A stretch of DNA of 45,680 bases. Origin: Nanobdellota archaeon (GTDB taxonomy: Archaea > Nanobdellota > Nanobdellia > Woesearchaeales > JAHJEM01). The translations under genes were made by a program, and so were the position numbers. This document shows positions 10,381 to 45,680 of this stretch, piece by piece. The DNA lies in the NCBI GenBank assembly GCA_043805315.1, contig JAZDID010000120.1, forward strand, positions 1 through 45,680. The letters are read 5' to 3'. The number at the start of each line of letters is the position of its first letter. The stretch's first letter is position 1. The notes beneath the pieces were generated by a model. The model had not been told where the DNA came from, did no database searches, and saw nothing but the letters and a program-made list of their open reading frames with translations.

Positions 10381-10388
10381 TACAAGTA

Positions 10389-11102: not shown

Positions 11103-11122
11103 GGCATTTTAAAAATAGAAGT

Positions 11123-11137
11123 GGTTTATAAATATTA
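11123..11137 (-). promoter_or_regulatory. Promoter box GGTTTATAAATATTA upstream of uppS
   Basis: The TATA core lies ~23 nt from ATG 11102. An identical 15-mer occurs at 13821-13835. Confidence 0.55.
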
Positions 11138-11157
11138 CTGATAATTGATTTATTCTC

Positions 11158-11709
11158 CTAGACTTCAGCCCTGCAGTCTGGGCAGACCAGAGAGCCTTGC
11201 TTCTCAGAGATCTCTTCAGAAACCTCGCCGCAGATCTCGCAGATGCCCTGGTGCGCGACGCGCTCGTAGACCGGCTTCTTGGTCTCCTCACGCAGCTCGA
11301 TCTTCTCGACGATGATGTCAAAAAGCTGCGGCTCTATCTTCAGGATGTCCTTCAAGGTGATGAAGCCGATGAGCTTCTTGGTGCTGTCAATGACCGGCAG
11401 GTGCCTGATGTCATTGTCCCGCATCATGATCAGCGCGTCATAGATGTCTTTCTCAGGAGAAATGGTGACGAGCTTGGTCGTCATGACCCTGGAAACAGGA
11501 GTTTTTTTCACGTCAAGGTCAGAGATGACTGCTTTCCGCACAATATCCTCCTCTGTCACGATTCCCTTGATCTTGTTCCCTGCGCTGACGAGTATCGAGC
11601 CGATGTTGTGCTTCTCCATCAGCTTGGCGCAATCCCTGACAGAAGTGTCCTCTGTTGCCGTGACCGGCTTGGTCGTCATGCCATCATGGACTGTGAAGCC
11701 TGTCTTCAT
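11158..11709 (-). CDS. CBS-pair domain protein with C-terminal zinc ribbon
   Basis: Two CBS motifs (..NIGSILVSAGNKIKGIVTEEDIV.., ..IRHLPVIDSTKKLIGFITLKDIL..) and a CEICG...CPDC ribbon. The ORF track starts at GTG 11718, which lies inside the SD AGGTGGA, so ATG 11709 is the more likely start. Confidence 0.85.
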   Translation of the reverse strand: MKTGFTVHDGMTTKPVTATEDTSVRDCAKLMEKHNIGSILVSAGNKIKGIVTEEDIVRKAVISDLDVKKTPVSRVMTTKLVTISPEKDIYDALIMMRDNDIRHLPVIDSTKKLIGFITLKDILKIEPQLFDIIVEKIELREETKKPVYERVAHQGICEICGEVSEEISEKQGSLVCPDCRAEV

Positions 11710-17056: not shown

Positions 17057-17102
17057 TGTCGTCTGTTTTTTTACTGTTTCGCGTGTTTTCTTCTTCTCAC
17101 CA

Positions 17103-21953: not shown

Positions 21954-24900
21954 ATGAGGAAAAAGGGCAGCACTATGCGGTTCACCTCACTAGTCCTTGT
22001 TCTTGGTGCGGTCATGCTCACATTCTTGTTCACGCTCAGCACCTCGTCAGGCCAGCTCTCAGTGGACAGCTGCAGCGTGCTCAACGAGTCCGCAATCCTC
22101 ACCGAGGACATCAACGCGACAGGCTCATGCTTCAGCATTATCGGAAATGACATTGAAATTGACTGTCAGCTCCACACCATTCAGGGAGATGGGACTGGAA
22201 TCGGGTTCTCGCTGTATAACAACAGCAATATCTTGATCAGGAATTGCATCGTCGAGAATTTTGAGACCGGGATAGATATCACAGACTCATTTGTTGGTGT
22301 CTACACTATATTGGTCAGACAGAACAGTAAAGGCATCATAACAAGAGGAGACTCTTACCTTGATACAGAAACCAATTCCATCAAAGAGAACGCCCTCGCG
22401 AACCTTGAGAACACCAATGGGAACTTCACCATAGCAGCGTATAACAACTGGTGGGGCACTGCAGACCCTGGTCAGATTGCGCTCACCATAATCGGCAATG
22501 TGAGCTTTGTCCCGTTCTTGGCCCTTGATCCGTATTCAGACGATGATGCAGATACAATCCCTTTGTTTTCAGACAACTGCCCTGCAGTCCCAAATCCTGA
22601 CCAGGGAGATGAAGACGGAGACGGCCTCGGGAATGTTTGCGATAACTGCGCTGACAACTTTAACCCTCTCCAGGGCGATCTGGATATGGATGCGGCCGGA
22701 GACGCCTGTGATCTCGATGACGACGCTGATGGCATCTGTGATTTCGGACTGAGTGTGACGCGGCCTTTGCCTGCCAATCTGGCCCTGAACAGGCCGGTGA
22801 CCGCATCGAACAGCGTCCCTCCGAACGTGCCAGAGTTTGCAGTTGACAGCGATCTGTTGACATTTCTGGCCATGGTCGGAGACCCGCCGCAAGATGTCAC
22901 AGTTGACCTGGAAAGCGCACAGCAAATTGAAAGGGTATCTGTGTTCTTCAATGACTCTGCATCACGCGCATTTGATTACAATATTGAGGTCAGCACAGAT
23001 GGAACAAGTTATGCCATCGCAGCGACTGTCCGCGATAATGATTTCACCGAGAACCACCTCTCCTTCCCTGCTCTCCAAGCCCGCTACGTGCGCCTCAGCC
23101 TCCTGGATTATGACTATGAGAAGGATGATGTGCGCATCAACGAGATCGAGGTGTACGGCTCGACGACATTGTGCACTGGCGGAAGTTCAGGAAGGGACGT
23201 GTGCCCGAGCATTTTTAATCCTGGGCAGGAGGATAGTGATAATGATACAGTGGGAGACGTATGCGATAATTGCCTCCTTACGCCTAATGTTGACCAGACA
23301 GACTCGGATAATGATGGAAAAGGGGATGGGTGTGATGTAAATGTTATGCTCGGGTCGTTCAGCTTCGACCCGCAGAATCCTGGTGAGCTGCCCAACATCA
23401 CCGAAGAGCTCCTCACCGATCAGGAGACCGGCTATTTCATCATCCAATACGCCGCAGGGATGGGGCAGAACATCACTGACGAGATAGCAGGCCGTGGAGG
23501 GCAGGTCAAGGGTTATTTCAACACAAACGGCATGATCGTCCAGGTGGCTGCGAGCCTCGGGGAGCTCCGGTCGTTAGACGCTGTCCGCTATGCTGACATC
23601 TACCAGCCCGTGTTCAAGATCGAGCCTCCGCTCTACGACCTCTACCTACACGGAGGACCCTCCGGGGACATCCTCTCCCTGGACGTGTACGTCTATGGTA
23701 ACAGCCAGGCGGTTATCAACTATGTTCTCTCGCTCGGCGGAACAGCAGTCCATAAGTATCTTGCTACTGATATCCAGTATGACAGGGTCCTCGTGGTGAA
23801 CATTACCGGGACGAAGCTCGCCAACCTCTCCCACCATCCCGACATCGAGTATATTGAGCTTAACTTTATTGACCAGCCTGAGCTGGACGTCGCGACGAAG
23901 ATCACTGATGTGCGGCGGGCATCAAACCAGCCGAATATCCTCGGTCTGACCGGCGCAGGGCAGATTATCGGCCATAGGGACACGGGCGTCGACACAGGCA
24001 ATGCGACCACGCTCATAGCCGACCTTGCAGGCAGAGTACTCAACGATTCAGGCCCGTGGCGTGACACGGACGGCCACGGCACTCACACGCTCGGCATCGC
24101 TATCGGGAACGGCGCCAATTCGGGAGGCCGCATCCGGGGCGTTGCTCCAGGGGCGACGGCCATCCACTCACCCTTCGCAGGTTCACCATTGGAATCGTGG
24201 ACAAACGCCTATAATAGGGGAGCGCGGATACACACGAACAGCTGGGGTAATGGATCGGGCACGACCTATAGTTCGCTCGAGAGCGAAGCCGACACGATAA
24301 CCAACACCAACCAGGATCTTTTACTCGTGAAATCTGCAGGGAACAACGGACCGGGGGCGGGAAGCATCACCTCGCCAACCGCATCGAAGAACCTCATCGC
24401 CGTAGCGAACTCAGAGAATGAACGTCCTGAAAGAACAGCCGCAAACAACGCAGCAGGGGCAGGAGTGGCAGACAATCGTAATCATCTGCGGAGGAGCAGC
24501 AGCGCGGGATTGACTGCTGACAACAGAATAAAACCAGATGTTACTGCACCAGGGACATGGATTTTATCCTTGCAATCGACAGCTCAGGCGAACATTGATC
24601 ATTGTGATGTCGATGGAGATGGTGTTACGGCAGAATCCTTTTATGCGAATCTCAATTATACATTCTGCACAGGCACCAGCATGGCAGCACCCCACGTCGC
24701 AGGCATGGGCGCGCTGATCCGGGAATACCTCATCAGCTTCAAGCACATGGTCAACCCGAGCGGCATGCTGGTCAAGGCCTTCATCATCAACGGCGCCCAA
24801 GACATGCCGGACACGGGAGTGATCGGCGGGGGAGGAGTGAACAGAGGGACAGGTCCCATACCGAACAATGATGAGGGCTGGGGAAGGGTCAATCTGACGC

Positions 24901-27900
24901 ATTCGATCATGCCCTCCGATCTTGTCGGCGCTGTGGATTTCTATGATTCCTTCAATAGGTTCTCGTTCAGTGCCAATGGGGAGAGGAAGAATTTCACGTT
25001 CCGGTTCTCGTCAGAGAGGCCGATCGCCGCGACCCTCGTCTGGTATGACCTTCCTGCCGCTGCAGCGACAGGCGGAGGTGTCGCGCTGATCAATGATCTC
25101 GATATGGAGATGATATCCCCGTCAGGCACCTGGTATAAAGGGGGGAATTTCGCAGGAAATTTTGTCGGAGGAATAACCCAAAGCGGAATCGCGGGAAAGG
25201 ACAGCAGAAACACCGTTGAAAAAATCATCGTCAGGGACGTGGAGGACGGCTTTTACAATTTCTCAATTCGGGCCCATAGCCTGCAGGCAGGCTCAACCCA
25301 GACCTTTGCCCTCGTCGTCTCGCAGCTCTTAGGTCTCGATGCAGCAAACAGGACCAATGTCACCCACTATTTTCCCGTTGGGAACAAAGTCTATGCAGAA
25401 GCGATCGGCTTAAAAAACAATACCCAGATTGAGCTCGTCGTGGTCGCCAACAGGCCGGTGTTCAAGTGGAATTCCACTGTCCAGGTCACGAATGGCGCCA
25501 GCCAGGGAGTCGGCGGATTCAAGTTCATCACCCAAACGCTCGTCCAAACAACAAACAATGGCACGCTTCCAGACCCTACAGAGATCTGGGATACTGCCGG
25601 GAAAGAGAATGAGGTCTGGGCATCCAATGGCATGTTCAACATCTTTGTCAATTACGGTCCCGGCCACCCGATCTATTTCAATAAGAATGTTGACGTGATC
25701 GACTACCACAAGAAGGTCGGTTTCAGGGTCGGCATCGCCAACTCCTCAAACACCCTCGGGGGCAACTTCTCTGACAACTTCACCTATGGCAGTCCGATCT
25801 TCATCAAGGGGGTCGGGTTTGAGCCCGGCAATGTGACGGTGTATGCGGTCAAGGACATCAATGCCTGGGTTGAGGATGCTCCCTTTGCTGATGTGGTGGA
25901 AAAGAAAGAAGGCGTCATCATAGGCAATGACGGCTTCTTCACGGCAAACGTATGGGATGCGCCAGAAAAGACAGAGACAGGAGATTATGATCTTGTCGTA
26001 GACGTTAACAATGACGGAAAATACCAAGCGTCAATTGATGTCATCGACGGAAAGACAATGAAGGGTTTCGTCGTCTCCTGCAAGCCAGGAGAAGTGTGCG
26101 GCGCTGTTGCGGCTGCAGACGCCTCAAGGGATGTCCAGGACGACTTCAACAAAGGAGATCCAGTTTTCGCCATCGGAAATCTTTACATCAGCCCCGGCCT
26201 TCTTTGGGTGCCGCCGGCCATTAATTTCTACAAGGTCTTCTCAAACTCGCCGGTTGAGGACCTTAACGGGGCGCCGCTCGTTGATGTCACTGGCGCGCCG
26301 ACGCCAATTAACGCGCCCAAAGGCCAGTTTATCAATATTAACACGCAGATATGGTCGTCAGCAGACCGTGAGGACGATTATGAGCTCATCCTCGATGTTG
26401 ACAATGACGGCATATTCAACATCTCCACAGATCTCTATGACCCGAACGGATTTGTGGTCACGAGGGAGATAAAGGACCCGCGCATCGCCGTGGACAGCCA
26501 AGGCAGCATCCACGTGGTCGCCTTGGAAAATGAGAAGGTGCCTGGCTACCCGAACCTGAAGAAGACGAACGTCCTCTACGCAAAGGTCCCTGCAGGGAGT
26601 GTCAAGATGGACTTTGAGCACCCTGAGCTGTTCGATTGGAGCGAGAGCCAGGCGGTCGTCTTCAGGACGATCTCTGAGAACTACGGCGGCACGGTGTACT
26701 TCCCTGACATTGCGGTCGACGCGAACGACGAGCCCTACATCATCTACAGCAGGTGGATATCGGAATTCCAGTGGCTCATCATCAGGAAACTGGACAAGAA
26801 TGGCAACAGGGACACGTGCTATGACCGTTCAGACCAGCTCACGCCGCCGGCGCCTGATAAGTCAAACTGCGATGGGAACGGCCTCGACCTATTAATCTAC
26901 CATTGGGACGATTTCGAGGACATCAAGCTCAACTGGCCAACAATAGCAGTAGATAAAACCACGAACCAGCCAGTCATCTCGGCAGAGGTCAGCATGATCT
27001 ATCCAGACGCGTTCTACTACACGCAGATCTACCCGCTCTGCTTCATCGGCTACCAGCCTATCTTCATCGGCCCGCTCATGCAGTTTGGCATCATCCCGTA
27101 TTTCCCGGTCCTCCAGGCAGGAGTCGTCACATTCTATGGAGATTCATTGCAAGTCGCCCGTCGTGTGCCAGGAAGCGCAGGCACCGCGCAGTGGCCGTAT
27201 TCTGTCTCTCAGTTCCCTGACGCAGCGAGGAGGTACGGGGCAGCGGCGACTGAGGTGAATGCCTGCCTTTGGGACGTCGCCACCTCAGGCTATCGGACTG
27301 ACGACAACTGGAAATGGATCACTGTCTCGCAGGTCCCACGGCTCGGCCTGTATTACGACACATCAAAAGTGGACACAGACAAGGACGGCAATATCCATGT
27401 TGTCTTCCGCCAGGGCAGCAACCTCAACTACTCGAAGATTGTCGGCTATGCTCCTGACTTCAACATTAAGATTGATGGCGGCGCTCCTCCCGCGCTGTGG
27501 TTCCCTTGGCTTGATGTCGACCTTGAAGGAAGGGGTCACGTGGCCTGGCAGAGCGGCAGCAAAGTGTATTATACTATTATTGATCCTGCTGGCAGTGCGG
27601 GAACCAAGCAGCTGGTAGCGAACCTGAATTCTCTTGACAGTTTTTCCAGGCCATCGGTGGCTGCTGACGGAGAGGGCGATCCGCACATCTCATGGAAAGA
27701 CAAGGGAAGCGATAGCAAGGACAAGCTCATGTATCGGAAGGGAGAGAATACTGGAGGCTCGGTCTCATTCCTTGACCCTGCCACTATTTTGGTGGATGCA
27801 GGCAATTTCACAGGAGCCTCTGGGCAGATCACGTATCCTGTGCTCGATACGAACAAGCTTGCTCAAGGCAAAGATTGGGAAGACAAAGTCACTGTCGGCT

Positions 27901-30900
27901 GGATCGATATCCAAGATTTGACCTTCTTCAAGGTCAAGCAGACGCTGCCACATGTCACCCTCCTGCTCATCCTCGACGGGATAGACAAGGAGTTCCTTGA
28001 TAACAACCTGCAGAACATGCCCAACCTTGCGCAGCTCATCAACGACAACCCGATACTGGATGCGAGCGTGCTCACGCCATTCCCAGGCACCACGATGTCG
28101 ACCCAGGCAGCCATGTTCACGGGAGTCAAGCCCAAGACCCATCATGTCATCGGGGATAACTTCAAGGCAAGCCAGGCATATTATTTCATGCCTGAATCAG
28201 GCGGCAGTCCCAATGATGCAGATGAGGTGAACAACGTCCTGCAATCCCCTCCCCTTTCAACGGTGTTCGATTCCTTGACCACTGCCAAGAGGAGCAAGGC
28301 AGGCATCCCCGCCATCATCCGGAAGGGCATCCAGGGCAACAGGCCAGACCACAACCCGGCCATCACTATTGATTTCTCCACAGGCACTGTCGATGAGTCA
28401 GACCGTACCCAATATCTCCAGGACCTCAAGAATAATGATGACCAGCCTGGAAATGACGTCGCCGAGCTCGTTGTGGCGTACCTGCTCACACACGACCACG
28501 GGATCAGCGACAATCCCACTGCATCAGGCCTCCACCTTGCAGCGCTCGACCAGAAGATCGGAGACATCATCCAGAAGCTCAAAGACAACAACATCTACAA
28601 TGACACCATCTTCATCATTACCTCAGACCATGGCTTAGTGGATACGATCAAGGATGACAACCACAGCCTTTCATTCTCAGACATCCCTGCATTGGACAAT
28701 CCTCAAGGCATTGCGCTCAATCCGCTGTTCCCGAACGGCAGGGTCGCATATTCTGATGACGGTCTCGATGCTGCAAAAGTGTACTATAACAATTCCGTGG
28801 TGAACATGGACAGCCCGTGGTACCAAGCCATCTCGCGGGTCATTGTCAAGCAAGGAGGAGCCTATTATGACTATAGTTTCAATGGGATGCAAGACGTCCT
28901 CACCCCTGCGACCGACCAATTCCTCGAAGACATGACGTACGGCACGAGCCCGAACATGATACTCATCGCATCGCCGGACTACTACTTCCAGACTCCTCAA
29001 GAAGCCATCTCCGGTGACCAAGAGATCGTGCCTTTCCTCATCACCGGGCCAGGCTTTGGCCTTTTTAGCAGGGGGAACAATAACATCCCAGGACAACTCG
29101 AGGCGGTCGATGTCGCTCCGACACTAGCCTTCTTCACAGGAGGACAAGAGGCAGTTGACCTCATGAGCGGCATTGATGGCGAGAATTTTTATGATCCAGC
29201 ACTCGTCATCCAAGGGGGGTCTCCAGTGGACTTCCATCTGTACGACAGCCTGGGAAGGCACGTCGGGCCCGACGAGTTCGGCAACATCGAGGTGCAGATT
29301 CCGAGCGCAGACTACAGCATAGATCCTGAGACTGGCAAGATCACCATCAGCCTCCTCCAGGCCCCGGACACCTACCTGCTCGATGTCGACAGCTATGGCT
29401 GGGGTAAGTTCGGCCTCTCGGTCAGGAAGAAGACAGGCAATGAGACCTTTGATCTCACTTTCCCGCGCACATCCATCTCGCCAAATTCTTTTGCAAACCT
29501 TGACCTCTCTACCATGGAGTTCCGACTGGACTTTGAGGGTGACGGGACATTTGAACGCATGATAGACCCTCCGGAATCCATCATCATTGTTCAGGATGAG
29601 CAGAACAACAGGGCAACGGCACGCATCCTCACGCTCGCTGCACGAGAGCCTGCGAGCATGGACTTGAGCAGGGCAACCGGCGTCATATTCGATGTGAAGA
29701 ACAAGCAGGGAATCACTGACGGGCAGATCGATGTGCAGCGGTTTTCTGACCAAAGTCTCACCCAAACAGGGTTCTACACCTTCGGAAATTATGTGGTGGT
29801 CAACATCAGCGACAACGTGCTCACGAATGCGAAGTTCACCAAGCTCACGATCATCTATCCAGAGTACCTGCTCTTTCAGAACAACCTCTCTGAGAAATCA
29901 CTTGCGGTCTATGACAAGCAGACCGGACAAAGATTCCTGTCAAGCGTCGATGGGGAAAAGAACAGAGTGACTGTCTTGATCAACAGTTCAGGAGAATACT
30001 TGCTGGCGAGCACAGACCTCATTCCGATGATGGATGATATCACCGTCACTCCGCAGGCGACTAACATCATCAATGCCCCGGTGCAGGTCTCTGTGAAGAT
30101 CAGCGATGACAGCCTGATCACTGGGGCTAACGTGACCCTGGGGAACAGGACAGAGCCTTTAGTGTTCAATAGCGGGTCAGGACGGTATGAGGCAGTCATC
30201 ACCGGGCCAGACATCTCAGCGACCTATCCTGTCTTCATCACAGCCCAGGACGACACCGAGAACATCGTGATGCGGCAGGCAGAGTTCAAGCTTGATCTCG
30301 ATGCCCCAGTCATCAGGATCCTCTCACCCCGGAACATTTCTTACACGACAAACAGGATCATGTTATCGTTCTTCACTGATGAAGTCGCTGACCTCTCACT
30401 TTCGATTGATGGATCTCCTTCAACACCGCTTAACAGCACCGCATCATTCAAGATCAATACGCTCCAGCTCACGCTTCCTGGAGGCAACCACTCCCTGACC
30501 ATTAACGCATCAGACGTGTTTGCCAACAATGGCATAAAAACAGTCTCGTTCGAAGTGGAGAAGGAGAATGTCCTGCTCTCTGACCTGGAAGTGCCGATGT
30601 TCGAGAAGCCTGGCATCCCAGTCCCGATACAGGCTGTCGCGGCGAATACCATGATGGATCCGGAACAGAATGTGCTGGCCCAGCTCTTGCTCAATGGCAA
30701 TGTGAGCCAGCAGACAGCGCTCAACATCTCGGGAGAATCGAGTGTGAATGTCTCGTTCCTCATCACGCCGCCTGAAGGGAGGTACACGCTCACGCTCAAA
30801 CTGCTCCCATTGCCAGAAGAGCGGGTGATTTTGGATAATGAGCTCTCGCAAGAGATCCTTATCACGAGCAAGATCCCGGTCCTAATCATCGCTGATGACC

Positions 30901-32732
30901 CTGCAGCGAACCAGTCAGTCTACCAGAATGCCATCAGCCAGGCAGGTGGCCTGGGATACGACTATTTGAGATATGACGTGAGCCAGAAAGGCCCTCCCAG
31001 TTTCCCTCTGCTCGACGGATTCCCTCTTGTACTCTGGCTCACCGGAGGGTCGCAGACCTTGACCCCGCTCGAGATCAACAGCCTGAAGTCCTACCTCGAC
31101 ACGCGAGGCAACCTGCTCATCTTCAGCAATGACATGGCTGCAGAGCTCGCGGATACAGACTTCTACAAGAATTACCTTGCCGCAGAGTTCAGGAGGCGTG
31201 CCAGTTCCACCACTATTGAAGGCGCGTTCAGGGATGCCATCGGTGCAGGCATGCTGTTCAGCATATTCGAACCAGGAGACGAGATCAAGCCGAGGATTGG
31301 TGCAACTGAATCATTCCGGTATTCTGGAGGAGAATCTGCTGCGATTAAGTATGACAGCGGTGTGTTCAAGACCGTCTATTTCACATTCGGCCTGGAGGAT
31401 GTGAATGACACAGAATCCCGGCAAATGATTATGGATAGGACGCTTGGCTATTTCAACATCGACATCCAACCACCAGGCATCACGAACATCGAGCCAGGGC
31501 TGAATGCGACATTCCCCATCAACACCAGCACCATCACGCTCTCGCTGCAGACGAATGAGTTCGCAGAGTGCAGGTACTCAGACACGATAACGCTCTTCGG
31601 CAGCATGTCCTTATTCGCGAGCACGAACAGCACCCAACACTCGACTCAGCTCAATAATCTTGCGAACGGGAACAATTACCTGTTCTTCATCAACTGCCGC
31701 GATGTCTTCAGCAATGAGAACAAGCAGCACACAGCGGGGTTCTTTATCTACAACAGGACATTCTTCCCGCCAGTTTTGCAGGACGTAGCCAGCCAGAGCG
31801 CTGATGAGAACACGCTTGTCCAGATCCCGCTCATTGTCTCTGACCCTGAGAACGATCCTCTCTCTCTGACCCTCTCAGACGTCGAGATCGTCGGCGTGGT
31901 TCCCATCGCCAGCAGATTTACCCTGCAGAACTCGACCTTCAGGTTCCAGTCGAACTTCAACGACGCAGGGATCTACAAGCTCCGCGTCACTGCCTCTGAC
32001 GGCTTTGAGAGCGTCTCGCGGGATTTCTTCCTCACAATCAACAACGTCAACCGCGCACCAGTGCTGGCATCCATCGGGAATAGGCAGGTCTTCGAGGACA
32101 GCCTCTTCACCCTTGATGCTGATGCAAGCGACCCTGACAATGACAACCTCATATTCACCGATGACAGCGGATTATTCGCGATCAACCCTGCGACTGGACT
32201 CGTCACATTCACGCCGAAGAACGAGCAGGTCGGCAGCCACCTGATCACTCTCACGGTGTCTGACTCCAACCTCTCTGACTCTGAAGTGTTCACCTTGACA
32301 GTCGTCAACACCAACGATCCTCCGATTGCCGCGTTCATACCGCCTCAGGCTGTGCAGGAAGGCAATCCGTTTGTCTTGCAAGTGAATGCATCTGACCCTG
32401 ACAACAACACCCTCACCTACAGCGATGACACCGACCTGTTCAACATCTCCCAGACCGGCCTGGTCAGCTTCACCCCAACGAACGCAGATGTCGGGACGCA
32501 TATCATCAACATCACGGTCTCAGACAGCATCGCCGCAGTGTCACGCCTGCTGAACCTCATCGTGACAGAGACCAATGCCGCGCCGATCATCACCAGCATG
32601 CCATACATCATCACCGTCAATCCAGGAGGTATCCTCGAGATCAATGTGACTGCGTGCGATCCTGACGTGAATCCAGCCTGTACACTAAAACAGCAGAAAG
32701 AACCGCCAATAGAGTCTATCAACATTCCCTAA
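21954..32732 (+). CDS. Giant (3592 aa) secreted multidomain protein: beta-helix, TSP3 repeats, discoidin, subtilisin S8 protease, propeller-like repeats, NPP/alkaline-phosphatase-type phosphodiesterase, Ig-like/CARDB modules, cadherin-like repeats
   Basis: Uninterrupted ORF with GAGG 10 nt upstream of the ATG and a signal-like N-terminus [17 protein letters not shown].
- Beta-helix-like repeats: ~22060-22500.
- TSP3 Ca-binding repeats: [26 protein letters not shown] (22527-22745) and a second set at 23195-23335.
- F5/8-type-C-like domain ending INEIEVYG: 22780-23160.
- S8 and NPP domains: listed as separate features.
- Repeated D-x-x-G-x-x-H-[VI] blades: 26470-27900.
- CARDB-like module: ~30590-30860.
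- Four cadherin-like ~95-aa repeats ([10 protein letters not shown].., [10 protein letters not shown]..): 31750-32640. Confidence 0.95.
   Translation: [3592 protein letters not shown]
23950..24900 (+). other. Subtilisin-family (S8) protease domain with an intact catalytic triad, inside the 3592-aa protein
   Basis: Asp in [10 protein letters not shown] (codon at 23979), His in DGHGTHTLG (24075), Asn in SAGNNGPG, Ser in [11 protein letters not shown] (24678). Propeptide-like region upstream and a P-domain-like LINDLDMEM segment downstream. Confidence 0.88.
27945..28650 (+). other. Nucleotide pyrophosphatase/phosphodiesterase (alkaline-phosphatase superfamily) domain, inside the 3592-aa protein
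   Basis: Motifs [11 protein letters not shown] (metal Asp), [29 protein letters not shown] (Thr nucleophile context; compare the NPP pattern P-T-x-T-x-P-N-H-x-x-x-x-T-G-x-x-P-x-x-H-G-I) and FIITSDHGL (D-H metal ligands). Confidence 0.75.
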
Positions 32733-37372: not shown

Positions 37373-37972
37373 GTGCAACGCAGACAAACACAGGAAAAGG
37401 GCATGCTCGACATGAGCATGTTCTCGACGAGGAAGCATTCCTGGATAGCGGCAGCTCTGCCGACCCTGCTCATGCTGGCTGCTATACTAATCGTAGGAGC
37501 GGCGCTGTCCGGATGCATCGAATACAACGGAGCGACAGTTCGAGTGACAGAAGTGGAAAAGGAACGGACGCACGAGTTCAGGATGGTGAGCGACGGCCAG
37601 CGCACCCTGCTTGAAGGGGCATTCAGCATCGACGGCAAATCCTATCCCGGCGAGATCTACTACGACGGGAAGAACAGCTACATCCTGCGCAAGAATCCAA
37701 ACCAGTGCATCAGCTATGACATCCCTGACAAGCTGCTGTTCGGCTTCAGGCCAATACCAGCACCTGCCGAAGAGGCCGCGTCTGGAGTCACTGTCCTCGA
37801 GAAAGACAGCAAAGACAGACCTATCATGTACAAACTTGTGGATCAGGGCATGACCTCCATCGTGGAGATCAATGGCATTGACCAGGCAACAGACGCGGGA
37901 AAAGGGTTCGACTTCAAGACGATTGATACGGGTACATGCATCAATGAAGGAGAGGTATATACTATTGGATAG
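37373..37972 (+). CDS. Small lipoprotein-like secreted protein (199 aa)
   Basis: GTG 37373 has GAGG 6 nt upstream (alternative ATG at 37403). Signal plus lipobox-like IVGAALSGC. No family recognised. Confidence 0.68.
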   Translation: MQRRQTQEKGMLDMSMFSTRKHSWIAAALPTLLMLAAILIVGAALSGCIEYNGATVRVTEVEKERTHEFRMVSDGQRTLLEGAFSIDGKSYPGEIYYDGKNSYILRKNPNQCISYDIPDKLLFGFRPIPAPAEEAASGVTVLEKDSKDRPIMYKLVDQGMTSIVEINGIDQATDAGKGFDFKTIDTGTCINEGEVYTIG

Positions 37973-40900
37973 GCAAACTCTAGAGGGGAAACGGGGAAGG
38001 GGGAAACAAGGGAAGAGCCTGTTCTCTGCCGGAGCATTGCTCCTGCTCTTGCTCCTGCTCTCTCTTCTCATGGCAGGCCTTGCCCTCGCAGCAACCCGCA
38101 AGCCGATTGTCCATCCGATCACCCTGCCGCCCCAGGTCCAGGTCCTGTTCCCGAACAATGGGGAGAACATCACCACACGCACCCTCAATGTCAGCTGGAA
38201 CGCCTTTGACCCGGACGGAGACGTGGTCACGCTCAACATCTTCGTGGACAGGAATAGTGACCCTGCAGACGGCTCCATCCAGGTCGCGTCGAGCGAGCCG
38301 AACGACGGCTGGTACATCCTCGACCTCCTCCCTCTTGCGCTTCCAGAGGACTATTACTACATCCGCGTGGACGCTGTCGCAGACATTGAACGGGTGACTG
38401 ATTATGCTGACCTGCCGTTCTACAAAGGAGGATTTGCTGTCAACTACAGCTCTGGACAGTACCAGGCGAGTGTCCTGCTTGTCCAGCAGCCAGAGATCAC
38501 TGTCTCGCCAGACCTCGCACCGCTCGGGAGAGGCATCTACCCGATCAGGTTCACTGTCCGCGACCCCAACCATGAGTCCCTGTTCGGCACATTCTATTAC
38601 TCGAGCTCGCCTGGCCAGCGCCAGAACCTCATCAGCCAGAACATTCCCCTTTCGAACATCTGCACTGATCCTGACGGCGATACTGCCACTGCCAACAACT
38701 GCACGCTGTACTGGAACACAACGCTCAACGCGAACGTGTCTATCGACATCGTGGCTACCAACACCCACCTTGAGGGGAATGCGAGCACACCACTCGTGCA
38801 GTTCGACAACAACCCTGAGGTCCAGGTCCTGTTCCCGAACGGCGGAGAGGAGCTCACGGACCGGTATGTGACCGCATCCTGGACAGCGGGAGACGTGGCT
38901 AACTTCAGCGTCCTCATCGACCTGTACTATGACGATGATGCAACAGCGTTCAACGGCAGGACCCTCATCGCGAGCGCAGAGCCCAATGACGGCTTCTATG
39001 TCTGGGACCTGCACACCGTGCAGGCAGGCGATTATTACCTGAGCATTGACGCGCGCTCCTCAGGCGTGGACAGCTCTGGCAACCCCATCACCGTGTCAAG
39101 CACTGACTACAGCAATGCCCTGTTCAGGAAGCGGGGCTTCAACGAGTCCTTCACAAGCGTCTTCGTGAGCAACAACTACACGGTCACGGTGAACGAGGCG
39201 CCTGCAGTGGAAGTCACTTCTCCGAACGGCGGAGAAACGATCAACGGGACCCAATCAGTGCAGTTCAATGTCTCAGACCTCCAGGGAGATTTCCTTGCCG
39301 CGAGCATCTACTATTCCACAGTACCCGGAGCAAAGGAGAATCTGATTGGGGCGAACATCTCGCTCAACAGCACCTACTGCGCAGACCCTGACGGGACGAC
39401 ATCCACAGAGAACAGCTGCGCCTATTCTTGGGACACTCTCGGACTGAATGGGAATTATTACCTCGACATCCTGGTGAGCGACTCCATCCTTACGGGATTC
39501 GACAGCTCTGACGCGAGCTTCACCGTGAACAACTATCCGCGAATTATGAACCTAACGGTGAGCAATGTTACGGACCAGAGCAGCCTCATATCCTGGCAGA
39601 CGCCTGACGAGGACACGAACGCCACTGTGCGCTACGGCCTTGACCAAAACCTGACACAGCAGACCTCAACGCTGAGCGTTGGCAGGATACAGGTGATCCT
39701 TCTGCAGAATCTCGTGGGAAACAAGGTCTATTATTTCAGCGCATTAAGCTGTGACGCGACAGGCTTGTGCACGAGCTCGAGCATCAGGAACTTCACGACT
39801 CTCGACAACAGGCCAGCCCTTGCGGTGCTCTCTCCGAATGGAGGAGAGGTCTTCACGACATCACAAGTGAACATCACTTGGAATGCAACAGACCCTGACC
39901 AGGACCCGATCACTCTCGACGTGTACTATGACACCGACAATCTCAGCGTGAACGGCAGGAACCTGATCTCGTCAGGTGAGGTGAATGACGGCTGGCTTGT
40001 CTGGAACATCCAGAACCTGAACAACGGGAATTACTTTGTCAGCATCGATGCAAACACCACAAGCCTGACAGAAGGCCCTGTCATTGTGCAGGACTACTCT
40101 GACAATTCATTCGAGAAGTCAGACATCTCTCTTGTCTACACCAGCAACGCCTACCAGGCTGATGTCTTGAAGAATGCGCCTGTCTCTATTGTTATCGGGG
40201 TGAATGACACAGAGCCGCTCGAAGACAATGTGACCATCAGCTTCAACCTCACAGACCTTGAGGACCAGTTCCTAACTGTATCACTCTTCTATTCTTCAGC
40301 TCCAGGATTGAAAGAGTATGCACTCTTCACTGATCTCATCATCAATGCATCCTTCTGCGCAGTGGTGCAGCAGCACAGCCAAGGAGGCGCCAGCTATGGA
40401 TGCGAGGTTGTCATAGACTCTGACAGCATCAACGGAGACTTCTACCTCGACCTTGAGGCAGACGACAGCATCCACACCAGCCTGAACAGCTCAAGCCTGC
40501 TCGCTTTCAACAACCCGCCGCACTTCATGAACATCCAGGTGCTTGACATCGACACCCACACGGTGCAGGTCAGCTGGCAGACCGCAGAGCTGACGAATGC
40601 GAGCATCAGCTATGGCCTGTCGCAGAATTACACCGACCGTGCTGCGGATAGCAATCCCCTCCTGAACCAATCCCTTGTCCTTGCGAACCTGACCGGCAAT
40701 AGGCGCTACCACTTCATGATCACGAGCTGCGACACCTCAGGAAAGTGCACGAGCACGCAGGACATGAACTTCACAACGCTCAACAACCTGCCCATTGTCC
40801 AGGTCATCTATCCGAACGGCGGCGAGCAGATCGACCAGCAGGTTCTGAACATCCAGTGGTCAGCGGTTGATGAAGACCTCGACCCGGCAACTCTTGATAT

Positions 40901-43900
40901 CTTCTATGACGTCGATGCGAACACGGCGAACGGCAGGTTCCTCATCGCAGCAAACCAGCAGAACAACGGCTCGTACACCTGGGACCTCTCCGGCCTCCAG
41001 CCAGGGCCGTATTATATCAGCATCGATGCCAAGAGCCAGGACCTCAGGCAAGGCCAGGTCACTGTGACTGATTACTCTGACGGGCGGTTCACCAAAGGCC
41101 AGTTCGGAAACACCTTCACGAGCAACTCCTACAATGTGACGGTTTTCAAGAATACCAATCCCTTCGGCAACATCACCTCTCCAACACTGTTCAGCATCCT
41201 GGTGAGGAACACCACGATCAACTTTACCGTGCATGACAATGAGGGAGACGGCCTGTATGCGAGCATCTATTATGGCGGAGAGATATTCCGCAGGCAGCTG
41301 ATCGTTACGAATCCCAGGAATACGCCACTCATCAGCTATCCAGTCTCTGCAGTCATCGACACCAAGACATTGATCGAGCAGCACAAGCTCAGGCCAGACG
41401 CAGTCGAGCTCAAGATCATCGTGGACGGGATAGAAGAGCAGCTCTTCATCGAGTCCGGATTGAACACGAACGCAACCGTCGTCTGGTTCAGCGTCAGCCT
41501 GCAGCCAGGCCAGACCAGGAATGACATCTACCTCTTGTATGGCGCTGCAGCATCATTGGCAATGGAGCGGAGCGAGCCGGATTGGACGAGGTTCTTGCCA
41601 AGCCTCAATGTGCTCGCGAACAAGCCCATCCTCAGCTTCTCATCAGAGGCAGTGGGCTTCCCTGCAGCGAACAGCAATGACAACAACACCGCAACAAAAT
41701 GGAGAGGGACAGGAAGCAGCGATTTCATCAGATACAACCTCACTGGCTTGCACAATCCGTCCATGGTGAAGTTCACCGCAGGATCAGGTACCAACCATTC
41801 CCGTGCCAGGTTCTCTCTCGACAATGCCAATTTCACGGTCATCAATGAGACCACGTTTTGGACAGGAACAGTGCAGAACATCAGCTTCAGGCCGATTGAG
41901 ATGCGCTACCTGCTCATCGACCAGATCACCTCGACGACACAGAGCGACATCTTCGAGATTGAGCTCTTCACCCCCTTGCTCATCCAGGCAGCGATCGGAG
42001 CAGAGAGTGCAGGAAGCAAAGTGCCCATCGTGCTCGGGCTTGACCTGTCCAATCCTGCGACCTGCACAGACCCTGATGGCTCCACAACAACGCCAAACAA
42101 CTGCTCGTACTTCTGGGACATGTCGCAGCTTGACGGAGAGTTCTGCATCAGGCTTGAGACAACCGACCTGATCTCAGAGACCGCAGTGCACGAAGTATGC
42201 AACATCACTATCGACAACATCAATGATTACCCTCTCCTGGTCATCCCGGTTCTGAACCAGCGCTGGGAGGTCAACACAGAGCTGATCAACGCGTTTGACC
42301 TGGATGACTATTTCAGGGATCCGAACAACGACACCCTCACATTCAATGTGACTGGCAACAGCATCATCACTGTAGGAATCGATCCCTTCACGCACCTTGT
42401 GAGCTTCAGCCAGCCGCAGAACTTCACCGGAAAGGAATTCGTGACCTTCATCGCAGACGACGGCTATCGCGGCATCACAGCCAGCAACCTAGTGGAGCTG
42501 TTTGTCACGCCCACAAAGCCGAACATCTCAGGTCTGCCAGACCAGTTCTTGCTTGAGGACTCGCCTATAGGGTTCAGCGTAGACTTATGGAATTATTCAT
42601 CAGATCAGGAAATGAATCTTTCACAGCTCTCCTATGCAGTCGTGAGCCAGACCAATGCCAGCCTGATCAATTGCGTCATCACCGGCGGGCACTTTGCCAC
42701 CTGCCTTGCGCCGCGGGCAAACGCGTCGGGAGAGTCAATCGTCAATGTCAGCGTCTCTGACAGTACATCCTTTGACTATGACTACTTCTCGATCACAGTC
42801 ATCGAGATCAATGACGCGCCTGACATCGCGAACCTGCCGGACAAGACCATCCTGGAGGACCAGGATCCTCCTGACAATTGGATCGACCTCTGGAATTATA
42901 CACAGGATGTTGAAGATCCGGACAGCAGTCTGGCATTCACCATCACAAGCCAGACAAACACCGGCCTGATCAGCTGCGACATTGCCTCGAACAGGTTTGT
43001 GAACTGCTCCAGTCCCTCGCCGACGCAATCAGGATTCAGTGATGTCAGCGTGCAGGCCACGGATACAGGAAACCTGACAGATGCAGACACCTTCAGGGTG
43101 ACCGTCATTCCTGTAGATAACATGCCGGTCATCACCCTGCTTGAACCGGTGAACGGGTATAGTACAATAGATTTCACGCTCAACTTCAGCTACACGGTCA
43201 CAGACATTGACGACACCTGGTTCCTCTGCGACCTGATCATCGACAGCATTGTGCAGGTGAATGACCGAAACGTTAGCAATGGCACAGTTGCCCTGGAAAC
43301 AGTGAGCAACCTTTCGGCAGGCATGCACACCTGGAGAGCCAGGTGCACTGACAGGTCCAACACTGCACTGTCAGAGAACAGGAGCTTCAGCATCTTCACA
43401 GACCTTGAGATTACGACGGCAGACATCACGTTCTCAGATGAGCTGCCCTTGCAGGGAGACACCATCAACATCACTGCAATAGTCAGGAACCTTGGCAGGG
43501 TTGACGCGCTCAATGTCCCTGTCGCATTCTTCCTGAACACCATACGGTTCAGCACCCAGCTCGTCAGCATACCGCAGAACAACTCGAGAAGCATCACGAT
43601 ACCATTCAACACCGGTCCTTTCACAGGGAACAACACCATCCTCGTGAAGGTGAATGAGAACGCGACAATCCAGGAGACCAACCTTGACAACAATAACGCG
43701 AGCAAAGCGCTCTTCATCACCCAGGACATCTTCCCGCCAGCATATGACGGGCTTGTCCAGCTGCCTGCAAACATTACTGAGCAAACAGGGAGTGTGAACA
43801 TCTCTGTCAATGTCACAGACAGGGGTTCAGGAGTCAATCCAACGACTGTGCGCTTGATCTACACCCTTGGAATAGGAGTGCCGCAAGTTGTGGGCATGTC

Positions 43901-45680
43901 AACAGAGAACAACAGGAGGTACACGGCAGTATTCTCGCCTGACTTCAACAGCAACCAGGGCCAGAACTTCACCTATTATATTACTGCGCAGGACAACAGG
44001 GCGAACACGAACAGGACAGAGGACTTCATTGATTACATCGACCCGATCAATGACCCTCCCGCAGTCACGATTGCCAGGCCAGACAACCAGACCTCATTCA
44101 ACCTGCAGGGTCAGGTCATCTGGAACGTTTTTGACGAGGACAATGACCCCACGATTTCATCACTCTACTACAGGACACGTGCGAGCAGCTCGCTGACCTC
44201 GGCTGCGGGGTCATACATGTTCATCACTACCACTGCAATCAATGAGACAACTTTCCTCTGGAACACTTCAGGCATCAGCCAAGGCCATTACCAGCTCAAG
44301 ATCAATGCATCTGACGGCGCAGCGCAAGGAGAGCAGGAGTCCGCAATATTCACCATAGACCACACGCCGCCAGCAGGAGTGACCCTGGTCTCGCCGATCA
44401 ATGGCACCACGACGAACCAAGAGCCAGTGCAGTTCAGGTTCAACACCTCGGACAACCTCGCAGCTACTCTCGCCTGCGACCTCTTCATCGACGGATTTAT
44501 GGGGGTCGTAAACATCTCTGCCCAGAACAGCACGCAGAAGGTGCAGAATGTACCTGGCATTCCTGAGGGAGCGCATAGCTGGTCTGTGGTGTGCAGGGAT
44601 CTCGCAGGCCTGAGTGCGGCGAGCCTGACAGAGCAGTTCTCAGTCGACAGGACCAGGCCGACCATCATGCTCCAAGAGCCCGTGCCTGCCGCAGTCTTCA
44701 GCCAGCCGAACATCATCTTCAACTTCACTGCAACCGACAATGTCGATAGCCTGTTGGACTGCGCCCTGCTCATCAACGGAGGCCAGAAGGGCAGCATAAC
44801 AGCGCTCAACAATACCTTCACGAGCATCATGGCTACATCGCTCAACAGCCAGGTGCACAACTGGCAGGTGCGCTGCACAGACGAGGCAGCGAACGGGAAC
44901 ACTACTGAGTCCAGGATCCTCAATATCCAGACAGACCTCAGCATCGCATCCAGCGACATCACCTTCTCTCCAGAGACGCCGACGCAGGGCACAAGCACGA
45001 CAGCCAATGCGACCATCCGCAACCTGGGCATAGCCAATGCGAGCAGCGTGCTTGTGGAGTTCTATGACCAGTTCAATGTGCTGAAAGGCAGCAGGACCGT
45101 GAACGTGCCTGCGCTCGGAAGTGCGACTGCAAGCATCACCTGGAGCCTGGCAGGCTACAGCCCTGGAGAGCATCCCTTGCAGGCCATCATCCAGCAGGGC
45201 CCCTACCTGGACAGCAACCTCGCGAACAACGAGGCGGGCAAGAACATCACGATCATCCTTGACCAGGATGCACCGGTCTTCTCACAAATCCTCACGACTC
45301 CACGAAATATCACCGAACACACGCTGAGCGCAAGCTTTGATGTCAACATCACGGACACTGGTGTCGGAATCGATCCGAGCTCGGTTCTCCTGAATTATTC
45401 CGTCGGCGCAATCTCAGGATCTAAAGCGATGACTCTTGTTTCAGGCAACACCTATCGTGCTGTCTTGAACAGGAGCGATATAGACTTTGACGCCCTGCAG
45501 GGAAACACGCTGTCATTCCTGGCTGCAGCGCGCGACCTGAATGGAAATGCAGGGACATCACTGCTGCAGCAGGAGTACATCGATCCGGTGAATGATGCGC
45601 CGAACATCACGATCTTCCTGCCGGACGCGAGCTCGCAGTGGGGAGGCGTGCAGACCATCCTCTTCAATGTCGACAATGAC
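37965..45680 (+). CDS. Giant surface protein, 5'-complete and 3'-truncated by the window end (more than 2570 aa); Ig-like PNGGE modules, FN3, discoidin, cadherin-like and CARDB domains
   Basis: This ORF is not in the supplied ORF track.
- Frame 0 has no stop that I found when reading by eye from the TGA at 37851-37853 to nt 45680, and the track lists no frame-0 ORF there.
- Candidate starts: TTG 37965 (AGGAGAGGT 8 nt upstream, 8-nt overlap with the previous gene), ATG 37872, ATG 38070.
- Signal peptide: KRGRGKQGKSLFSAGALLLLLLLLSLLMAGLALAA.
- FN3 domains: 39538-39810 and 40514-40790.
- Discoidin-like domain: 41610-41975.
- Three ~100-aa cadherin-like repeats: 42225-43125.
- CARDB-like domains: 43401-43720 and 44934-45255. 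Confidence 0.9.
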   Translation, partial: MDRQTLEGKRGRGKQGKSLFSAGALLLLLLLLSLLMAGLALAATRKPIVHPITLPPQVQVLFPNNGENITTRTLNVSWNAFDPDGDVVTLNIFVDRNSDPADGSIQVASSEPNDGWYILDLLPLALPEDYYYIRVDAVADIERVTDYADLPFYKGGFAVNYSSGQYQASVLLVQQPEITVSPDLAPLGRGIYPIRFTVRDPNHESLFGTFYYSSSPGQRQNLISQNIPLSNICTDPDGDTATANNCTLYWNTTLNANVSIDIVATNTHLEGNASTPLVQFDNNPEVQVLFPNGGEELTDRYVTASWTAGDVANFSVLIDLYYDDDATAFNGRTLIASAEPNDGFYVWDLHTVQAGDYYLSIDARSSGVDSSGNPITVSSTDYSNALFRKRGFNESFTSVFVSNNYTVTVNEAPAVEVTSPNGGETINGTQSVQFNVSDLQGDFLAASIYYSTVPGAKENLIGANISLNSTYCADPDGTTSTENSCAYSWDTLGLNGNYYLDILVSDSILTGFDSSDASFTVNNYPRIMNLTVSNVTDQSSLISWQTPDEDTNATVRYGLDQNLTQQTSTLSVGRIQVILLQNLVGNKVYYFSALSCDATGLCTSSSIRNFTTLDNRPALAVLSPNGGEVFTTSQVNITWNATDPDQDPITLDVYYDTDNLSVNGRNLISSGEVNDGWLVWNIQNLNNGNYFVSIDANTTSLTEGPVIVQDYSDNSFEKSDISLVYTSNAYQADVLKNAPVSIVIGVNDTEPLEDNVTISFNLTDLEDQFLTVSLFYSSAPGLKEYALFTDLIINASFCAVVQQHSQGGASYGCEVVIDSDSINGDFYLDLEADDSIHTSLNSSSLLAFNNPPHFMNIQVLDIDTHTVQVSWQTAELTNASISYGLSQNYTDRAADSNPLLNQSLVLANLTGNRRYHFMITSCDTSGKCTSTQDMNFTTLNNLPIVQVIYPNGGEQIDQQVLNIQWSAVDEDLDPATLDIFYDVDANTANGRFLIAANQQNNGSYTWDLSGLQPGPYYISIDAKSQDLRQGQVTVTDYSDGRFTKGQFGNTFTSNSYNVTVFKNTNPFGNITSPTLFSILVRNTTINFTVHDNEGDGLYASIYYGGEIFRRQLIVTNPRNTPLISYPVSAVIDTKTLIEQHKLRPDAVELKIIVDGIEEQLFIESGLNTNATVVWFSVSLQPGQTRNDIYLLYGAAASLAMERSEPDWTRFLPSLNVLANKPILSFSSEAVGFPAANSNDNNTATKWRGTGSSDFIRYNLTGLHNPSMVKFTAGSGTNHSRARFSLDNANFTVINETTFWTGTVQNISFRPIEMRYLLIDQITSTTQSDIFEIELFTPLLIQAAIGAESAGSKVPIVLGLDLSNPATCTDPDGSTTTPNNCSYFWDMSQLDGEFCIRLETTDLISETAVHEVCNITIDNINDYPLLVIPVLNQRWEVNTELINAFDLDDYFRDPNNDTLTFNVTGNSIITVGIDPFTHLVSFSQPQNFTGKEFVTFIADDGYRGITASNLVELFVTPTKPNISGLPDQFLLEDSPIGFSVDLWNYSSDQEMNLSQLSYAVVSQTNASLINCVITGGHFATCLAPRANASGESIVNVSVSDSTSFDYDYFSITVIEINDAPDIANLPDKTILEDQDPPDNWIDLWNYTQDVEDPDSSLAFTITSQTNTGLISCDIASNRFVNCSSPSPTQSGFSDVSVQATDTGNLTDADTFRVTVIPVDNMPVITLLEPVNGYSTIDFTLNFSYTVTDIDDTWFLCDLIIDSIVQVNDRNVSNGTVALETVSNLSAGMHTWRARCTDRSNTALSENRSFSIFTDLEITTADITFSDELPLQGDTINITAIVRNLGRVDALNVPVAFFLNTIRFSTQLVSIPQNNSRSITIPFNTGPFTGNNTILVKVNENATIQETNLDNNNASKALFITQDIFPPAYDGLVQLPANITEQTGSVNISVNVTDRGSGVNPTTVRLIYTLGIGVPQVVGMSTENNRRYTAVFSPDFNSNQGQNFTYYITAQDNRANTNRTEDFIDYIDPINDPPAVTIARPDNQTSFNLQGQVIWNVFDEDNDPTISSLYYRTRASSSLTSAAGSYMFITTTAINETTFLWNTSGISQGHYQLKINASDGAAQGEQESAIFTIDHTPPAGVTLVSPINGTTTNQEPVQFRFNTSDNLAATLACDLFIDGFMGVVNISAQNSTQKVQNVPGIPEGAHSWSVVCRDLAGLSAASLTEQFSVDRTRPTIMLQEPVPAAVFSQPNIIFNFTATDNVDSLLDCALLINGGQKGSITALNNTFTSIMATSLNSQVHNWQVRCTDEAANGNTTESRILNIQTDLSIASSDITFSPETPTQGTSTTANATIRNLGIANASSVLVEFYDQFNVLKGSRTVNVPALGSATASITWSLAGYSPGEHPLQAIIQQGPYLDSNLANNEAGKNITIILDQDAPVFSQILTTPRNITEHTLSASFDVNITDTGVGIDPSSVLLNYSVGAISGSKAMTLVSGNTYRAVLNRSDIDFDALQGNTLSFLAAARDLNGNAGTSLLQQEYIDPVNDAPNITIFLPDASSQWGGVQTILFNVDND
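38128..41050 (+). repeat. Four tandem super-repeats of the form [PNGGE Ig-like module - second Ig-like module with C-x-DPDG...C - (FN3)]
   Basis: Module starts:
- VQVLFPNNGE at 38128
- VQVLFPNGGE at 38815
- VTSPNGGE at ~39212
- LSPNGGE at 39820
- IYPNGGE at 40795
The 23-mer AGGTCCAGGTCCTGTTCCCGAAC is identical at ~38135 and ~38817. Confidence 0.8.

Follow-up and report, generated by a model that had tools for sequence, protein, structure and literature searches.

A giant modular secreted protein at the open end of a Woesearchaeota-type archaeal contig

Background

Giant proteins that are membrane-bound or extracytoplasmic and carry multiple adhesion domains are a known hallmark of the DPANN archaea, and a role in host interaction has been proposed for them (PMC6642349; PMC10266531). 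The gene described here belongs to this already known kind. It lies at the end of contig JAZDID010000120.1, a 45,680-bp stretch from a metagenome-assembled genome (MAG) of a Woesearchaeota-type DPANN archaeon, and it runs off the contig edge. The window is this whole stretch at its full length, and the GenBank record holds no downstream sequence. The closest described systems are the nanohaloarchaeal SPEARE (NAR1_1133) and the proteins SVXNc_0300 and BNXNv_0298 (PMC6642349, PMC10266531). Like the window protein, they come from DPANN archaea, are thousands of residues long and carry a Sec signal. They also share with it the long strings of immunoglobulin (Ig)- or FN-like adhesion domains, the large share of a tiny genome and the proposed contact with a host. 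SPEARE-type giants are set apart by laminin-G and by a conserved VirB4/TraG-like domain (earlier called a 'restriction enzyme' domain) that follows their C-terminal transmembrane helix on the cytoplasmic side; neither is found in the window fragment or in its full-length relatives. The original definition of SPEARE also demands a serine protease domain. SPEARE-related sequences have been described in Woesearchaeota (PMC6642349).

Two other groups resemble parts of the window protein. Bacterial tandem-95 or cadherin-like giant adhesins (NF012211; Big_9, Cadherin_5, He_PIG) have repeats of ~95-100 amino acids (aa) that end in V-x-V-x-x-V-N-D-x-P, as the window protein does, but here there are three copies only and the NCBIfam score is far below the cut-off. 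CBM32 modules, such as DD1/DD2 of the Paenibacillus chitosanase (PDB 4zxe, 2rv9), are matched at the profile level; in the window the putative module and its DUF2341-like companion are nested in an Ig domain of a protein that is non-enzymatic.

Genomes of DPANN archaea are about 1 Mb in size. In this window more than 23.7 kb, over half of the contig, is taken up by three genes for giant secreted proteins and a small partner gene, all in the same direction. Giant secreted proteins are the best candidates for how DPANN cells recognise and hold their hosts, and we know of no giant surface protein of the Woesearchaeota type that has been characterised. The window copy has already been annotated automatically. 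What is new here is a map at the level of modules, a conserved three-gene arrangement, a putative lectin insertion of one domain within another, and a recurrent four-domain cassette that includes a module here called M110. These additions are useful for annotation and for the choice of constructs, and they leave current understanding unchanged. The most interesting part is the conserved set of FG-GAP, lipoprotein-like and giant genes together with the putative nested lectin head.

Reading frame and start codon

The initial annotation, made by eye from the letters, had claimed a frame without stops from position 37854 to the last base, and computed translation confirms it: the frame has 2609 codons and zero stops, is an exact multiple of three, and is directly preceded by a TGA at 37851-37853. 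From the base composition the probability of a stop-free frame is ~1e-44, and each of the other five frames has 50-213 stops over the same stretch. In this region the accompanying track of open reading frames (ORFs) lists antisense and out-of-frame ORFs only. That omission had been ascribed to the missing stop, correctly, because ORFs running off an end go unlisted under the rule of the list; this ORF is open-ended because the contig stops inside the gene. The gene had been called missing, which holds for the mechanical list and not for GenBank, where it is already annotated as MFH1073180.1 (here also P0001), a product of 2572 aa that is 100% identical and named 'MAG: CARDB domain-containing protein, partial [Nanoarchaeota archaeon]'. 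Giant genes that reach the edge of a contig will be overlooked in any list that drops end-running ORFs. No continuation past 45680 turned up when the final bases were scanned as exact 31-mers against collections of genome and metagenome contigs. Judged by the closest orthologue, P0033 (7301 aa, JGI metagenome 3300017598, locus L004), about two thirds of the gene, several thousand codons, is probably absent from the contig.

The frame is open at 37854, as claimed, but this position is merely the first codon after a stop and not the start. Candidate starts in the frame are ATG 37872, ATG 37944 and TTG 37965, the last being the one implied by GenBank's 2572-aa product. The TAG of a small upstream gene comes 5 nt after TTG 37965 begins (TTGGATAG), an overlap of 8 nt, and in L004 the orthologous pair is arranged alike, with the giant gene's ATG and the small gene's stop in a matching 8-nt overlap (ATGTCTGA). 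A Shine-Dalgarno-like GGAGAGG motif stands 9 nt upstream of TTG 37965, and a GGAGG-like motif precedes the giant-gene start in both the window and L004. Because the overlap with the small gene has the same geometry in the L004 orthologue, the predicted start is set at TTG 37965, with ATG 37944 less likely. The stop/start overlap suggests translational coupling of the small gene and the giant gene. Residue numbers of the giant protein are counted from ATG 37944 throughout.

Domain organisation of the giant protein

This is a real gene, open-ended at the contig edge, and its product is giant, secreted and modular. Most of the module types that had been named by eye prove correct. The signal peptide that had been proposed at its N-terminus is well founded: aa 23-53, with a basic stretch before them, are the sole hydrophobic segment in the whole protein (by clusters of 19-mers), they lead to a cleavage motif (Table 1), and the orthologues P0033, P0018 and P0003 have equivalent N-termini. 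The protein is acidic (predicted pI 4.1), it contains 93 N-x-S/T sequons against 42 expected from its composition, and all 24 of its 24 cysteines are in local pairs. Domains above the Pfam cut-off are CARDB (two copies), fn3, Pur_ac_phosph_N, Kre9_KNH and Big_7. CARDB (PF07705) scores 63.1 bits in two stretches against a gathering threshold of 22.7. A phmmer comparison of the whole protein with PDB sequences gave no match, and profiles were needed instead. A C-terminal sorting domain of the type IX secretion system (Por_Secre_tail) was considered and rejected: such a domain lies at the extreme C-terminus of Bacteroidota proteins, whereas the match here is internal (aa 667-709), no single stretch exceeds the threshold, and the NCBIfam score is below the cut-off. 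It reflects the Ig-like fold shared with the A module described below.

The N-terminal part consists of four super-repeats, each with an A module (P-N-G-G-E, Ig-like of the Kre9_KNH/Big_7 type) and an Ig-like B module, as had been read by eye; protein self-BLAST recovers them as diagonals at +228, +333, +550, +659 and +887 with E-values from 1e-16 to 4e-35. FN3 domains had been noticed in two of the four, and they are found after super-repeats 2 and 3 (aa 533-619 and 858-937) with scores above cut-off: 32.6 against 25 bits for fn3 (PF00041) and 40.7 against 30 for Pur_ac_phosph_N (PF16656), the latter in two stretches. The C-x-DPDG...C pair described for the second Ig module is present in three of the four B copies, B1, B2 and B4 (motif at aa 240, 479 and 1374), while B3 has the cysteine pair without DPDG. 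An AlphaFold model of A2 and B2, built from 12 paralogous and orthologous rows, has a predicted local distance difference test (pLDDT) score of 87 and shows two beta-sandwich domains. With this model Foldseek finds tandem Ig/FN3 proteins, among them RbmA, titin Z1Z2, cadherins and S-layer domains, with E-values down to 1e-6.

A discoidin domain had been placed after the four super-repeats. The type of module stands, and its position has to be corrected, for in a MAFFT alignment of B1-B4 the fourth B module is split: aa 1075-1113 of B4 pair with the first halves of B1-B3, and aa 1361-1430, including the C-T-DPDG...C motif, pair with their second halves. Between them lies an insertion of ~245 aa, at a place where B1-B3 carry the 9-residue loop SSSPGQRQN, and alignment shows that each of the three orthologues has kept this insertion. 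As aligned, then, a DUF2341-like and CBM32 pair appears to sit inside the fourth B Ig module and not after it. Its first part matches DUF2341 (PF10102) with 14.0-17.1 bits, below the cut-off of 23.4; the match recurs at one and the same place in three of the four orthologues, namely the window protein, P0033 and P0003. Its second part scores 19.4-26.1 bits with Pfam F5_F8_type_C against a cut-off of 28.2, and a profile of three orthologues matches the chitosan-binding CBM32 modules 4zxe and 2rv9 (E=1.5e-5 over ~115 residues) as well as CBM32 modules of hyaluronidase and alginate lyase.

After the split module come three repeats of ~100 aa, which had been called cadherin-like and which prove to be homologous to tandem-95 repeats. 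They give an internal self-BLAST diagonal at +100 (E=4e-20), a BLASTP match to the 'tandem-95 repeat protein' P0008 (E=3e-16) and weak Pfam matches to Big_9 and He_PIG. The NCBIfam model tand_rpt_95 (NF012211) gives 21.6 bits on the giant protein, short of its cut-off of 90, which is a whole-protein score that needs many tandem copies; the window protein has three copies only.

The rest of the fragment is built from a larger unit, here called U. This second-order unit had been said to be repeated twice, and the two copies do align with each other (aa 1728-2068 with 2239-2579, 34% identity, E=1e-16); the boundaries that had been given, 43125 and 44355, are about 10 nt off those found here, 43134 and 44364. 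The two units are separated by an extra H-x-W Ig module, seen in self-BLAST as diagonals at +417 and +95, and P0033 carries the matching module at aa 2092-2185. Five further giant proteins, P0033 among them, align with the cassette over its entire 413 aa. The third domain of the cassette, M110, is an Ig-like module of ~110-115 aa to which no Pfam family is assigned in the window protein or in the reported best stretches of four relatives. Its signature is D-x-T-x-P...P-x-N-I-T-E...I-T-D-x-G-x-G-V...G-N...E-x-I-D. Among 1.84 billion representative proteins there are 110 with relatives of M110 (E<=1e-3), mostly giant proteins with multiple copies, and a profile of 30 sequences weakly matches the Ig-like domain of the P. 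gingivalis peptidylarginine deiminase (E=5.6e-4). M110 is therefore put forward as a candidate for the definition of a new domain family.

Table 1. Positions of the giant gene, the modules it encodes and the genes of the same block
Feature	Position	Strand	Remarks
First gene of co-directional block, 3592-aa secreted protein	21954..32732	+	
FG-GAP/VCBS beta-propeller giant, ~1528 aa	32764..37350	+	Pfam FG-GAP_3 in 16 stretches
Small conserved partner gene, 189 aa	37403..37972	+	N-terminal hydrophobic segment, lipobox-like LSGC
Giant surface protein, partial coding sequence, 5' part	37965..45680	+	At least 2572 codons; open at contig end; alternative start ATG 37944
Sec-type signal peptide	37965..38090	+	Basic n-region KRGRGKQGK, Leu-rich h-region, A-L-A↓A cleavage motif
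Super-repeat 1	38127..38813	+	A (PNNGE motif, Kre9_KNH/Big_7-type Ig-like) and B (Ig-like, C-x-DPDG...C pair, Cys 240/253)
Super-repeat 2	38814..39800	+	A2 38814-39167, B2 39201-39527, FN3 39534-39800
Super-repeat 3	39813..40763	+	A3, B3 (Cys pair without DPDG motif), FN3 40509-40763
Super-repeat 4	40791..42233	+	A4 40791-41135, split B4 (N-half 41166-41282, C-half 42024-42233)
DUF2341-like beta module, first part of insertion in B4	41283..41588	+	Sub-threshold Pfam DUF2341
Discoidin/CBM32-type putative carbohydrate-binding module, second part of insertion	41592..41978	+	
Three ~100-aa tandem-95/bacterial-cadherin-like repeats	42237..43133	+	aa 1432-1730
Cassette U1	43134..44363	+	H-x-W Ig 43134-43397, CARDB 43401-43703, M110 43704-44039, A-like Ig 44040-44363
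Extra H-x-W Ig module between cassettes	44364..44648	+	H.W at aa 2211, Cys 2178/2217
Cassette U2	44649..45680	+	H-x-W Ig, CARDB 44934-45236, M110 45237-45572, A-like Ig cut after 36 aa

Relatives of the giant protein

By its alignments the window protein belongs to an unnamed group of orthologues together with P0033, P0018 (2268 aa, JGI 3300032069, locus L001) and P0003 (3255 aa, ENA ERZ27262661), at 27-42% identity. Word-based searches found P0018 and P0003, and P0033 came from an exhaustive HMMER search with M110. Over the whole fragment P0033 is collinear (window aa 27-2579 with P0033 aa 11-2527, 42% identity), P0018 is 35% identical over 83% of window aa 55-1460, and P0003 is collinear at 27-30% identity. 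With the distant P0018 and P0003 alone, orthology by position could not be settled; it became clear once P0033 was used. For 21 of the 24 window modules the best P0033 match is the positional counterpart, with steady offsets of -25 to -52 residues, and the identity of a module to its counterpart (32-59%) is usually above that to its best internal paralogue (29-44%).

All three orthologues share with the window protein the signal peptide, the four A and B pairs with FN3, the nested insertion with its putative DUF2341-like and CBM32 modules and the tandem-95-type repeats, and in all their loci an FG-GAP giant lies directly upstream. Among the three, P0033 alone also has the two U cassettes, the small lipoprotein gene and the overlap of 8 nt. 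P0018 and P0003 differ from the window protein after the tandem-95 repeats: both have Cys-rich stalks and a transmembrane helix at the C-terminus, and P0003 additionally has an alpha/beta hydrolase. In P0033 the remainder (aa 2528-7301) consists of more CARDB domains, FG-GAP_3 repeats, a VWA domain and Ig-type domains; no catalytic domain was found in this remainder, and P0033 has no transmembrane helix.

A more distant kind of relationship is seen in MBI2549170.1 (P0035, 6803 aa, a 'VCBS repeat-containing protein' of Candidatus Woesearchaeota) and in P0031, P0052 and P0039. These four share the full four-domain cassette at 27-39% identity, and the tandem-95 repeats, with the window protein. 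They differ from it in having no N-terminal super-repeat region and are related through shared cassettes only. The sole locus found in the search of genome contigs for relatives (L003) encodes an 1100-aa protein of B-type modules from an uncultured archaeon (8048-11350). This protein is unrelated to P0033, and the C-termini of both contain a region with the motif GWNLI(G/S)xP and no transmembrane helix; the region may be a C-terminal sorting or attachment domain shared by these archaea.

Age of the repeats and integrity of the assembly

The repeats had been described as nested at two scales, and self-comparison of the protein shows both levels. They had also been taken as a sign of recent modular expansion, and here the results point the other way. 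Paralogous modules within the window protein are 19-45% identical in amino acids and have almost no similarity in DNA. The only self-matches of the giant gene at the DNA level are one of 23 nt (exact) and one of 95 nt (at 72%), both over codons of conserved motifs, and no tandem DNA repeats were found in the body of the gene. Its sole arrays are two short tandem ones at 37985-38061, within the codons of the signal peptide. The full order of modules, including both U cassettes and the Ig module between them, is common to the 42%-identical P0033, from which it follows that the architecture predates the split of these lineages. The two-level design is old and inherited rather than the product of ongoing expansion. 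Recent duplication or gene conversion does occur in the family, in P0018 and not in the gene of the window: the B1-B3 modules of P0018 (L001 10001-16807) are 61-78% identical to one another, and its FN3 domains apparently likewise. The gene was also considered as the target of a diversity-generating retroelement, and this was rejected, with no pair of template and variable repeats in the window and no reverse transcriptase in the ORFs scanned.

Function

The product of the giant gene is probably a secreted, acidic, predicted heavily N-glycosylated, multi-domain surface adhesin that putatively binds a host or glycans. According to this reading, which draws on domain content and gene order, the giant gene would be translationally coupled to the small gene, and the Sec signal peptide followed by the long string of beta-sandwich modules would give a rod that projects from a small archaeal cell. 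The CBM32 head would bind glycans or surface proteins of a host, a neighbouring cell or a matrix, and the string of repeats would provide a spacer or stalk and allow multivalent binding. Distal FG-GAP and VWA (integrin-like) domains would also bind if the window protein resembles P0033, and the giant protein may act together with its FG-GAP partner. Several points weigh against such an assignment. Strings of Ig, FN3 and CARDB domains are equally typical of proteins that are associated with a surface layer (S-layer) or that bind substrates. The labels CBM32 and DUF2341 come from sub-threshold Pfam scores and one profile match, and when the nested B4/DUF2341/CBM32 region was modelled with AlphaFold from an alignment of 3 rows, the pLDDT was 44 and the model unusable. 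Anchoring is inconsistent: there is a terminal transmembrane helix in P0018 and P0003 and none in the closest orthologue P0033. With the C-terminus of the window protein beyond the contig, its retention at the surface is putative. A bolder version of the adhesin, which we regard as possible and no better than tentative, is that the FG-GAP giant, the small lipoprotein and a protein of ~7000 aa with Ig, CBM32, FG-GAP and VWA domains form a conserved, translationally coupled 'integrin-like' attachment apparatus specific to one lineage of Woesearchaeota-type DPANN archaea, in which the lipoprotein or the propeller tethers the fibre and the DUF2341-CBM32 head reads host glycans. A tether by one of these partners is proposed because P0033 lacks a transmembrane anchor. 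If such an apparatus existed, the operon would be a determinant of host range.

Other explanations have to be set against a host- or glycan-binding adhesin. The protein could instead be structural, a string of beta-sandwiches that forms the S-layer or is associated with it and binds no other cell. Sequon enrichment and acidity are as in archaeal S-layer glycoproteins, P0018 and P0003 have C-terminal transmembrane anchors, and the Foldseek matches include S-layer domains of Deinococcus HPI and Bacillus anthracis Sap. We nevertheless consider this unlikely: a length that reaches 7301 aa in P0033 and a mixed content of CBM32, VWA and FG-GAP are atypical of lattice-forming proteins, the family is rare, with three clear orthologues from the protein searches, and its C-terminal parts are highly variable. 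It is likewise improbable that the protein is a scaffold for substrate capture or extracellular enzymes, in which CBM32 and Ig/CARDB modules bind environmental polysaccharide and catalytic domains possibly lie beyond the contig end, since Pfam finds no catalytic domain in the sequenced 2572 aa and the rest of P0033 has none either. What speaks for a scaffold is that the CBM32 matches are modules of glucanase/chitosanase, hyaluronidase and alginate lyase, that P0003 has an alpha/beta-hydrolase domain and another relative (P0029) an esterase-like domain, and that subtilase and phosphodiesterase domains are found in the product of the gene that opens the block.

Two further readings carry very little weight. 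A giant of the SPEARE type would combine an adhesion part outside the cell with a transmembrane helix at the C-terminus and a conserved ATPase or 'restriction' domain in the cytoplasm, forming a conduit to the host. The superphylum, the giant size and the multiple adhesion domains agree with this, a subtilase-bearing giant is present in the same gene block, and related sequences are on record from Woesearchaeota (PMC6642349); however, in the 2579 aa of the window protein Pfam gives no Laminin_G or peptidase match, the subtilase being confined to the separate gene at 21954-32732. No cytoplasmic domain of the ATPase or helicase kind is present in P0033, P0018 or P0003, whose intracellular tails measure from 0 to ~55 aa, and the downstream regions of L001, L002 and L004 contain no VirB4-like gene, all of which makes a SPEARE-type giant highly improbable. 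As for the sequence itself, misassembly had been named as a worry that could undo the repeat structure. The contig does end within the giant gene, and repeat-rich genes often break assemblies, but that the repeats come from collapsed or chimeric reads, or that the gene is a decaying pseudogene, is barely credible. Misassembly of the sequenced part is very unlikely because the copies are divergent in DNA and the layout is shared with P0033: with almost no DNA identity the copies could not collapse, form chimeras or be mis-joined, and their order is reproduced module by module in that independent metagenome. A pseudogene would have to have kept a frame with zero stops over 7.8 kb.

Gene neighbourhood

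The giant gene is the last member of a co-directional block. An orthologue of the FG-GAP giant stands directly upstream and on the same strand in L001, L002 and L004, at 29-44% identity. The small gene between them has a 168-aa counterpart in L004 (3800-4306), equally placed and 32% identical (E=2e-20); it has no detectable similarity to the 140-aa lipobox protein found at the same place in L002. By comparison of these loci, the succession of FG-GAP giant, small lipoprotein-like gene and giant gene is a conserved co-directional set. The small lipoprotein-like protein may tether the giant protein or act as its chaperone. The first gene of the block is variable, as L001 has a giant of NosD/beta-helix type in that place, a difference judged by Pfam content only. 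In the window this first gene encodes discoidin/NedA-like, subtilase S8 and type I phosphodiesterase/nucleotide pyrophosphatase domains and, towards the C-terminus, Big_9/cadherin/PKD-like domains. Its product has an N-terminal hydrophobic segment and none at the C-terminus. The combination of protease and adhesion domains is SPEARE-like, but the C-terminal transmembrane segment and the cytoplasmic tail of those proteins are missing.

GC content is 0.42-0.50 over positions 1-22000 and rises to 0.53-0.57 over 22000-45680, at the start of the block of giant genes. The rise is due to codon position 2, i.e. amino-acid composition, and to the loss of AT-rich spacers; GC content at codon position 3 (GC3) is alike in the two halves. 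A horizontally acquired island was ruled out, as the GC3 of the giant genes (66-72%) matches that of housekeeping genes (62-76%). Elsewhere the contig encodes polyprenyl and cis-prenyl synthases, CBS, PIN and PadR proteins, a tyrosine recombinase and many products with no Pfam match, a content that fits a small archaeal genome. Next to the block, at 14813-20420 on the minus strand, there are two large adjacent genes of 747 and 1105 aa with N-terminal hydrophobic segments and no Pfam match, which would be uncharacterised envelope or secreted proteins adjoining the giant genes.

Further away, 70-nt AT-rich arrays at 4541-4610 and 6493-6562 form an inverted repeat. They contain reiterated ATCAA(C/T)CAATATAT-like motifs and are 74% complementary, and a 48-nt tandem repeat is present at 6464-6559. 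The arrays flank a segment of 1.9 kb that carries, both on the minus strand, the tyrosine recombinase (4704-5516) and a PadR-family regulator (6101-6457). The segment could be invertible or mobile, or the arrays could be binding sites of a regulator or origin-like repeats.

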